IMG/VR virus record: IMGVR_UViG_3300025703_000001
Span: 1 to 64,000 of that record
DNA length: 64,000 nucleotides
Source: a virus
Reading direction: 5' to 3' (one strand)
Shown: positions 41,417-41,776 of the stretch, one piece after another
How the letters are laid out: each line of letters starts with the position of its first letter
How positions within the stretch are numbered: position 1 is the stretch's first letter
Notes under the pieces: generated by a model
Databases searched by the model: none
What the model saw: only the letters and a program-made list of their open reading frames with translations
What the model was told of the DNA's origin: nothing
Program-made: the position numbers and the translations under genes

Positions 41417-41776
41417 TCACGCCAGCTTGCGCGCCCGTGCGGCCAGCATTGCTGCAGACAGGGCACACGTTTCGCCGGTCGGACGCGTCCATACCCCGAT
41501 AGCCTGATCCGTCACGGTAGATCCCTCCCGCATAAGGTCGGACAGCGTTAGCGGCTTGTCCTCAGCTGGCTTGGCATCCAGTTCCTCGCGCAGCTTTGCG
41601 ATGGCATCCTGATCCAACATGCGATCGATTTCATCTAGCAGCTTGTCCGTCTCAGCCTTAACCTCAGCCGTCTCAGTACGCTGCGGTGAAGGATTTTCCT
41701 TCAAGTGTGACTGTTCCGTATCCGAGGATTGTCTTTGCTGCTTTTTCTGAGTCGGGACCAACGCTTGGGTACTCAT
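41417..41776 (-). CDS. Pup-like protein fused to a phage domain, lacking the C-terminal GGQ/GGE
   Basis: AAGGAG RBS; disordered Q/K/E-rich N-terminus then ETDKLLDEIDRML, matching Pup ETDDLLDEIDDVL; C-terminal LSDLMREG...TCALSAA. Confidence 0.75.
   Translation of the reverse strand: MSTQALVPTQKKQQRQSSDTEQSHLKENPSPQRTETAEVKAETDKLLDEIDRMLDQDAIAKLREELDAKPAEDKPLTLSDLMREGSTVTDQAIGVWTRPTGETCALSAAMLAARARKLA

Follow-up and report, generated by a model that had tools for sequence, protein, structure and literature searches.

What could a phage gain from a protein that resembles the tag of the proteasome pathway and has lost the end by which such a tag is attached? Pup is a tag that needs ligation by PafA before it is read by ARC/Mpa. 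A minus-strand gene at 41417..41776 (stop codon included) of the virus record IMGVR_UViG_3300025703_000001 encodes a protein of 119 residues, termed here Pup-X (P0001), in which a Pup-like N-terminal half is followed by a small folded domain (domain X). The stretch of DNA analysed, referred to as the window, comprises the first 64 kb of this complete 86,323-bp IMG/VR record with direct terminal repeats. It is proposed, by analogy with engineered systems, that Pup-X is a natural “linear Pup fusion”, i.e., a ligase-independent degron by which the host ARC/Mpa would bind the protein, thread its tail and strip X from Y, the product of the gene directly upstream; this reading is given a probability of about 0.5. 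The gene is supported by its open reading frame (ORF) and translation (ATG at 41776 and TGA stop at 41417-41419 on the minus strand, from the ORF list of the window), by 19 homologs and by 233 profile matches. An initial annotation, made from the letters alone, had described 119 residues with a polar disordered N-terminus, a Pup-like motif, a further domain and an ARKLA end, and both the ORF and the structural model agree with this description.

The sequence of Pup-X runs from its polar N-terminus through ...AETDKLLDEIDRML... to the C-terminus ...ARARKLA, and the AlphaFold2 (AF2) model, built on a 79-row alignment, has a mean predicted local distance difference test (pLDDT) score of 83.8. Residues 1-33 (41678..41776, minus strand) are without secondary structure in this model (pLDDT 61-75) and, considering also the composition of the tail in relatives, are read as a putative Pup-like “threader”. 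Helices follow at residues 34-53 and 56-68. The Pup-like helix is assigned to residues 34-58 (41603..41677, minus strand; core TDKLLDEIDRML) on the basis of the Pfam Pup match and of the Pup chains that head the PDB search, and residues 59-73 (41558..41602, minus strand) hold the second helix (56-68 in the model) together with a linker that divides the relatives into two length groups. The distance from the end of the motif to the start of domain X is 20-24 residues in 31 of the 65 motif-bearing proteins and 10-14 residues in 25 of them.

The likeness to Pup was recovered by several routes of comparison. A hidden Markov model (HMM) search against Pfam Pup, which the initial annotation had proposed as a check, aligned residues 10-58 of Pup-X with positions 6-56 of the 69 in PF05639 (E=7.6e-5), though at 24 bits the match stays under the gathering score of 27. 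The same family is matched by 35/79 family members at E<=0.01 (best 1.3e-8), with no other family recurring; relative P0026 passes the cut-off with 32.7 bits and relative P0012 (26.8 bits) does not. The label “Pup-like protein” had been placed on two relatives by the pipeline of the Joint Genome Institute (JGI). When a profile of the 19 close homologs was searched against all PDB sequences, ranks 1-4 were all Pup chains (3m9d_G with E=6.9e-4, followed by 7px9_G, 3m91_B and 9cku_H). The profile segment eetdklLdeiDklLdqda aligns with EETDDLLDEIDDVLEENA of these chains; P0001 itself has AETDKLLDEIDRMLDQDA opposite EETDDLLDEIDDVLEENA, with 11/18 positions identical.

At the level of the motif, 65 proteins yield the consensus [EAD]-T-D-[AK]-L-L-D-E-I-D-x-[VLI]-L-[DE], some positions of which are fixed by the regular expression that selected them. 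Positions free of the selecting expression are nevertheless strongly kept, with T before the motif in 52/65 and L after it in 64/65 proteins. The motif equals the segment of Mycobacterium tuberculosis Pup at T, D, LLDEID and L, and residues L47, I50, D51 and L54 are invariant across the 19 close homologs. The tail accompanies the motif: at least 25 polar residues stand ahead of it in 54/65 proteins (median 37; hydrophobic 14.8%), and the median N-terminal extension is 60 residues in Pup-motif proteins vs 30.5 residues in proteins that carry X only. Searches with the whole AF2 model were uninformative, as Foldseek against the PDB gave nothing significant (best E 5.3) and a wide VIA-align comparison reached a best Z of 3.5 with every match on the long helix. 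Judged from sequence comparison, the Pup likeness of the N-terminal half is beyond chance, and the earlier view that this half resembles the Mpa/ARC-binding part of Pup is borne out by the Pfam match and the ranking of the PDB chains.

What the phage protein has kept and what it has shed can be set against the two ways in which Pup is bound. As described in passages of PMC8755798, Pup residues 21-51 form one helix that lies antiparallel on the Mpa coiled coil, and the N-terminal segment remains unstructured and enters the pore as a threader; PafA and Dop, according to a portion of PMC8223512, bind Pup as two shorter orthogonal helices. In 25/65 proteins the linker is only 10-14 residues long, and about half of the Pup-bearing relatives reach domain X within 10-15 residues of the motif; no room is left there for a second Pup helix, and this makes an engagement of PafA/Dop by Pup-X unlikely. 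The initial annotation had placed the motif in a region of Pup bound by PafA/Dop as well as by Mpa/ARC, and the PafA/Dop part of this is improbable for Pup-X. In contrast, its statement that the conjugation tail is missing proved correct. None of 153 relatives ends in GGQ/GGE; in all of them, 13-18 residues follow the Cys motif of domain X before the protein stops. NCBIfam TIGR03687 is matched by Pup-X over positions 4-20/33 only (15.6 bits against a cut-off of 41.45). As GGQ/GGE and the C-terminal part of Pup are gone, Pup-X cannot be ligated to anything. A search of all 86,323 bp of the phage for the Pup ligase family (PF03136) gave no match at E<=1, and the gene does not lie beside pafA/dop/arc/prcBA in this phage.

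Cellular Pup (PF05639, TIGR03687; PDB 3M9D, 7PX9) shares with Pup-X a disordered polar N-terminus followed by a helix with a T-D-x-L-L-D-E-I-D-x-V-L-E core, the element which in Pup docks on Mpa/ARC. Pup-X differs from it in lacking the second PafA/Dop helix and GGQ/GGE, in carrying a folded domain of 46 residues instead, in being encoded by a phage without pafA/dop, and in scoring under the family cut-offs. Pup-X is therefore no strict member of the Pup family; it resembles the reader half of Pup, and the ARC/Mpa-reading half appears to be what selection kept in this phage family.

The folded half, domain X (residues 74-119; 41420..41557, minus strand), is composed of a helix, a beta-hairpin and a further helix, as delineated by the 79-sequence alignment and the model. 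It is conserved, 46 residues long and compact at residues 78-115 (pLDDT about 97), with R83, G85 and C104 invariant in 79 sequences; the X-domain pattern L-x-D-x-x-R-x-G...Q...C-A-L is present in Pup-X. The 19 close homologs of Pup-X share 50-99% identity, and an exhaustive phmmer search returned 67 representatives, the profile search returning 233 proteins at E<=1e-3. Many relatives (51-80 residues) consist of X alone with only a short acidic helix in front, the Pup motif being present in 65/163 X proteins and absent from 98/163. Among 50,697 records of cultured phages, X is confined to 26 records of Streptomyces phages and 2 of Rhodococcus phages, and the X of these phages is without the Pup part. 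No cultured phage matches the whole of Pup-X, its Pup-like part alone or 4 kb of the DNA. The Pup-bearing sub-group of X is known only from metagenomes. Neither X nor Y nor any of their Streptomyces-phage relatives falls into a PHROGs family, and a pattern for the short-linker subfamily, applied to viral contigs, gave 90 matches with no relative among them. Two giant proteins that phmmer had returned as relatives (P0032 and P0041) were rejected as repeat proteins matching by chance over a 17-residue stretch. A further metagenomic protein, P0037 (205 residues), begins with the tail and the Pup-like motif and enters X, after which it runs on as unrelated sequence with a Cys/His-rich end; it may be a frameshift or a different fusion.

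Domain X is not an isolated unit. The upstream partner gene Y (252 residues, P0090; 41673..42431, minus strand) is supported by its ORF and by 6 homologs. In their alignment, a block at the C-terminus is near-invariant and the N-terminal parts are poorly conserved. The conserved module comprises residues 144-216 (SIVSELLSICPGL...RPCPEC...HVNDAHQWSREKIAEWLDIIA; 41784..42002, minus strand, from alignment columns) and includes WSREKIAEWLDIIA as well as a C-X2-4-C-X12-H-X4-H pattern, which reads C-X2-C-X12-H-X4-H in the present Y. This spacing agrees with that of C2H2-type zinc fingers (C-X2-4-C-X12-H-X3-5-H, a beta-beta-alpha fold). Its invariant columns are C156, C166, H182, H187 and W189-A202 (C166, H182 and H187 counted over 7 sequences). 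Compared with Atlas structures, the C-terminal module shows a weak likeness to C2H2 and Ros/MucR zinc fingers (template modelling (TM) score 0.46, zf-C2H2 cluster; pLDDT of the Y model 53.9), and residues 140-206 are resembled by viral hypothetical proteins of 112-122 residues in the Atlas (TM 0.57-0.64).

Y and Pup-X overlap by 104 nucleotides in two reading frames (41673..41776, minus strand, from the ORF coordinates), and both frames are kept in relatives, the tail of Y as PSIGPSSEE... and the start of X as MSSQALVP. Elsewhere, the junction varies: the genes abut in locus L010 and overlap by about 125 nucleotides in L011. Overprinting in the 104-nucleotide overlap may have given rise to some of the disordered tail. 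The Pup part may have come from a host gene by capture or may have arisen by mimicry; the joint occurrence of tail and motif favours capture over mimicry, whereas the overlap of the N-terminal coding region with the end of Y, in another frame, counts against a simple capture.

Linkage of the two genes was surveyed with HMMs built from own alignments (among the loci, L014 repeats L002, and L036 and L037 are near-identical). In 32/33 loci, X is accompanied on its own strand by a Y-domain ORF, upstream in 31 and downstream in L020, the only locus without Y being L032, where X lies 97 nucleotides from the contig end. The Pup part is present in only 3/33 of these loci (the present one, L010 and L011). 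Y is found in the same 26 Streptomyces cultured-phage records as X, and the pair occurs on two IMG/VR contigs as well. Variants of the module include three Y-domain ORFs in a row before X (L024, 2727-4439), two in a row (L013, 726-2204) and a reversed order with X ahead of Y (L020, 9896-10832). The same Y-X module is recognisable in Streptomyces phage MeganTheeKilla (Gilsonvirus; gp107/gp108) and in Rhodococcus phage Trina (gp240/gp238, with an ORF of 83 residues between). In both pairs, the larger protein ends ...LNDxxKWTREQIADW... and is followed by a protein of 68-70 residues with ...YTLADAIR(D/E)G...CAL(T/S)AA...; they differ from the present pair in that X is without the Pup-like tail and motif and Y is without the Cys/His pattern, and all of these proteins are annotated “hypothetical protein”.

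Prediction of a complex between Y 125-225 and X 66-119 supports the partnership weakly, with a score of 0.57 (runs 0.57, 0.37 and 0.59) vs 0.02 for the best control, at least 74% of contacts common to the runs and a partner pLDDT of at least 54. The mark applied to such predictions is reached by 58/80 solved complexes and by 2/110 mismatches, and at scores of at most 0.60 it is reached by only 7 of the 80 solved complexes and by both passing mismatches; own alignments were used for Y-X, to which these benchmark counts apply only roughly. From gene linkage and predicted complex taken together, it is likely that X and Y bind each other. At the least, comparison of genes and loci indicates that domain X is the small partner of a newly recognised, conserved two-gene phage module, Y-X. 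The initial annotation had spoken of an “unrelated domain” behind the Pup part: a domain does follow, and it is not an arbitrary cargo, being the conserved partner of Y at 32/33 loci. The view of X and the C-terminal part of Y as two halves of a single split domain was dropped, as a single-chain form was found neither in the 67 representatives, nor among the matches listed (120 of 233; 28-216 residues), nor in cultured phages.

Any role for ARC/Mpa presupposes a suitable host. A WhiB-family gene, a marker of actinobacteria and their phages, lies at 47945-48157 (+) of the window (PF02467, 66.8 bits, above the cut-off); among 14 control genomes, the family was detected only in Corynebacterium. 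An Rpf-like transglycosylase domain at 18956-19162 (-) scores 26.3 bits against PF06737 (cut-off 27), with one TAG in the matched frame. For the terminase, the closest counterparts come from Arthrobacter, Glutamicibacter and Brevibacterium phages (about 47%), with similar scores for a Microcystis phage and a gut virus. Relatives were absent from cellular genome contigs (0 among 48 pattern matches), and no prophage was found among them. These markers suggest that the phage probably infects actinobacteria. The initial annotation had named homologs mainly in phages of hosts without Pup as a finding that would speak against it; the cultured phages with X infect Streptomyces or Rhodococcus in 28/28 records, and the present phage carries WhiB.

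The same phage harbours a second Pup-like ORF. It lies outside the window at 82186-82329 (+) of the genome (G000; 1501-1644 of L006), directly after a lysin-like gene of 215 residues, and encodes 47 residues ending in GGGE. Its match to Pfam Pup reaches 17.7 bits (E=5.3e-4 for this genome), with no match in NCBIfam or among cultured phages. It is possible, from its sequence and ending, that this ORF is a ligatable mini-Pup.

The closest parallel to Pup-X is found in engineered proteins. Passages of PMC8755798 report that Mpa-20S recruits and degrades linear fusions of Pup to a substrate with no need for a ligase, and such fusions (Pup-DHFR and others of the Mpa-20S studies), as described there, consist of a Pup tail, a Pup helix and a folded domain joined by peptide bonds. 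As the order of tail, helix and folded domain is the same in Pup-X, the latter can be read as a natural, encoded Pup degron. The two differ in that the engineered fusions carry full-length Pup and Pup-X only about the first 50 Pup positions; furthermore, Pup-X belongs to a natural family (motif in 65/163 X proteins) whose folded part has a dedicated partner in Y. A full-text search, with most subscription journals outside its coverage, found no literature on phage-encoded Pup or natural linear Pup fusions and no published example of phages tapping or blocking the actinobacterial proteasome pathway.

In the proposed mechanism, X would have gained a Pup-like front end, made of a disordered polar tail of about 35 residues and a helix able to dock on the ARC/Mpa coiled coil. 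The host ARC/Mpa would dock on this helix, thread the disordered tail and extract X from the Y-X complex; in this way, the phage would turn X into an inherent substrate for the unfoldase and proteasome of its host. The outcome may be a timed removal of X or a remodelling of Y-X that depends on the host unfoldase, and Pup-X would occupy ARC while engaged. ARC binding, degradation of Pup-X and the consequence for Y are all inferred here by analogy. Such a self-targeting degron would fit the conserved threader tail at least as well as the two roles put forward by the initial annotation, i.e., an inhibitor or an adaptor.

Several points weigh against a natural degron. Pup-X itself falls under the Pfam cut-off (24 vs 27), and the likeness lies largely in a motif of about 14 residues, so that it could be convergent. 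Only actinobacterial markers point to ARC/Mpa in the presumed host. In 5/65 Pup-motif relatives, the protein starts at most 10 residues before the motif, which, if the starts are correct, leaves no threader and fits binding without degradation. An acidic amphipathic helix also stands at the N-terminus of the X-only forms, and the helix of Pup-X might accordingly serve Y-X assembly rather than ARC. Finally, on a tree of the 46-residue X domain, the Pup-motif trait requires 15 changes vs a mean of 48.3 in 200 shuffles, which means that it is clustered without forming a single clade.

The main rival draws on much of the same evidence. As a decoy inhibitor, Pup-X would bind the ARC/Mpa coiled coils like Pup, either in excess or because it resists unfolding (X being clamped by Y), would block pupylated host or phage proteins and would stop Pup-dependent degradation during infection. 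Inhibitors of host proteases that act as pseudo-substrates are known from phages, and the Pfam and PDB matches, the 35/79 relatives and the motif speak for an ARC/Mpa ligand of either type. The gene belongs to a long minus-strand block that spans roughly 22-45 kb of the window, is made up of small genes and includes a DNA methylase-like ORF and an AAA ATPase, a setting which can be counted for inhibition, as can the relatives with an apparent helix and no tail (the 5/65 above) and the ORF ending in GGGE, given that two genes could act at two points of the pathway. However, a pure binding competitor would not need the long disordered tail that is kept in 54/65 relatives, and neither high expression nor resistance to unfolding of Pup-X has any sign in its favour. 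On this balance, inhibition of ARC by a decoy is unlikely, even as the leading competitor of the degron. Weaker still is the adaptor, a “pre-pupylated” shuttle in which X would be the ARC tag, the variable N-terminus of Y would bind a host protein, and Y-X would drag that target to the proteasome. A variable N-terminus on a near-invariant C-terminal module is how a binding head set on a constant dock would be expected to look, and the Y-X linkage with its complex score (0.57 vs 0.02, a weak argument) is consistent with it. Nevertheless, only non-covalent contacts would tie the tag to Y and to any target, and to judge from the engagement of Pup by Mpa, an unfoldase threading the tail would extract X and not the target; besides, most Y-X modules work without the Pup part (98/163 X proteins). 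Among the degron, decoy and adaptor readings, the adaptor is the weakest, with very little probability left to it.

In the remaining alternative, Pup-X would have nothing to do with the Pup pathway: its acidic amphipathic helix would serve Y-X assembly or another interaction, and the Pup likeness would be convergent or coincidental. In X-only forms, too, the domain is preceded by an acidic helix (type ...KIDEKAKELQETINEIG...), Pup-X stays under both the Pfam and the NCBIfam cut-offs, and phmmer over 1.84 billion representatives returned no cellular Pup at E<=1e-3. Against this, 35/79 relatives match Pfam Pup and no other family recurrently, four Pup chains come first in the PDB profile search, T, D, LLDEID and L are kept exactly as in Pup, the polar tail arrives with the motif, and the setting is that of an actinophage. 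This reading is therefore considered improbable; it keeps some weight because Pup-X alone is sub-threshold and the X-only forms have their acidic helix.

Returning to the linear Pup fusion, a wider proposal can be framed tentatively, namely that actinobacterial phages built a ligase-independent Pup degron on one Y-X subunit, which the host would either extract on schedule (a switch) or be jammed by; together with the putative mini-Pup of 47 residues, the pathway would then be hit at both the ligase and the unfoldase steps. This combination is doubtful in its entirety and is put forward as a possibility.

As regards the gene and its surroundings, a Shine-Dalgarno sequence AAGGAG, read from the sequence, lies at 41781..41786 (minus strand), with GGAG 4 nucleotides upstream of the Pup-X ATG, and AAGAAGGAGAAGC is the sequence immediately 5' of this ATG. 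The close-homolog alignment shows a shared MSSQALVP-type N-terminus. The phage is tailed, with tail tube, tape measure, large terminase and primase-polymerase detected. Two sequencing runs are listed with this stretch, both from peat metagenomes and possibly its source, and none is an RNA run. The AAA ATPase of the minus-strand block (354 residues; 33494-34558 of the window, minus strand) has an N-terminal DUF5925 and only a remote likeness to proteasomal ATPases; as a candidate ARC, it was ruled out by a TIGR03689 score of 13.4 bits against a cut-off of 504.75. NDP-sugar C-methyltransferase domains (PF08484, PF08421) are found at 59052-60275 (+) of the window, directly after the terminase, as a member of a sugar cluster, and an ORF at 37204-37998 (-) has no NCBIfam match at E<=0.1.

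For the biology of actinobacterial phages, the consequences would be considerable if the proposed reading is true. A Pup degron would then work, and would have been selected, without ligation, and phages would tap into or block the actinobacterial proteasome pathway. On the wider proposal, Pup-X would have no precedent, either as a natural linear Pup fusion or as a phage factor directed at ARC/Mpa. Apart from this, the Pup part gives a link to function for a module whose annotation does not go beyond “hypothetical” in the 26 Streptomyces and 2 Rhodococcus phage records, and it may offer a compact natural degron or ARC-binding peptide for mycobacteria and Streptomyces.

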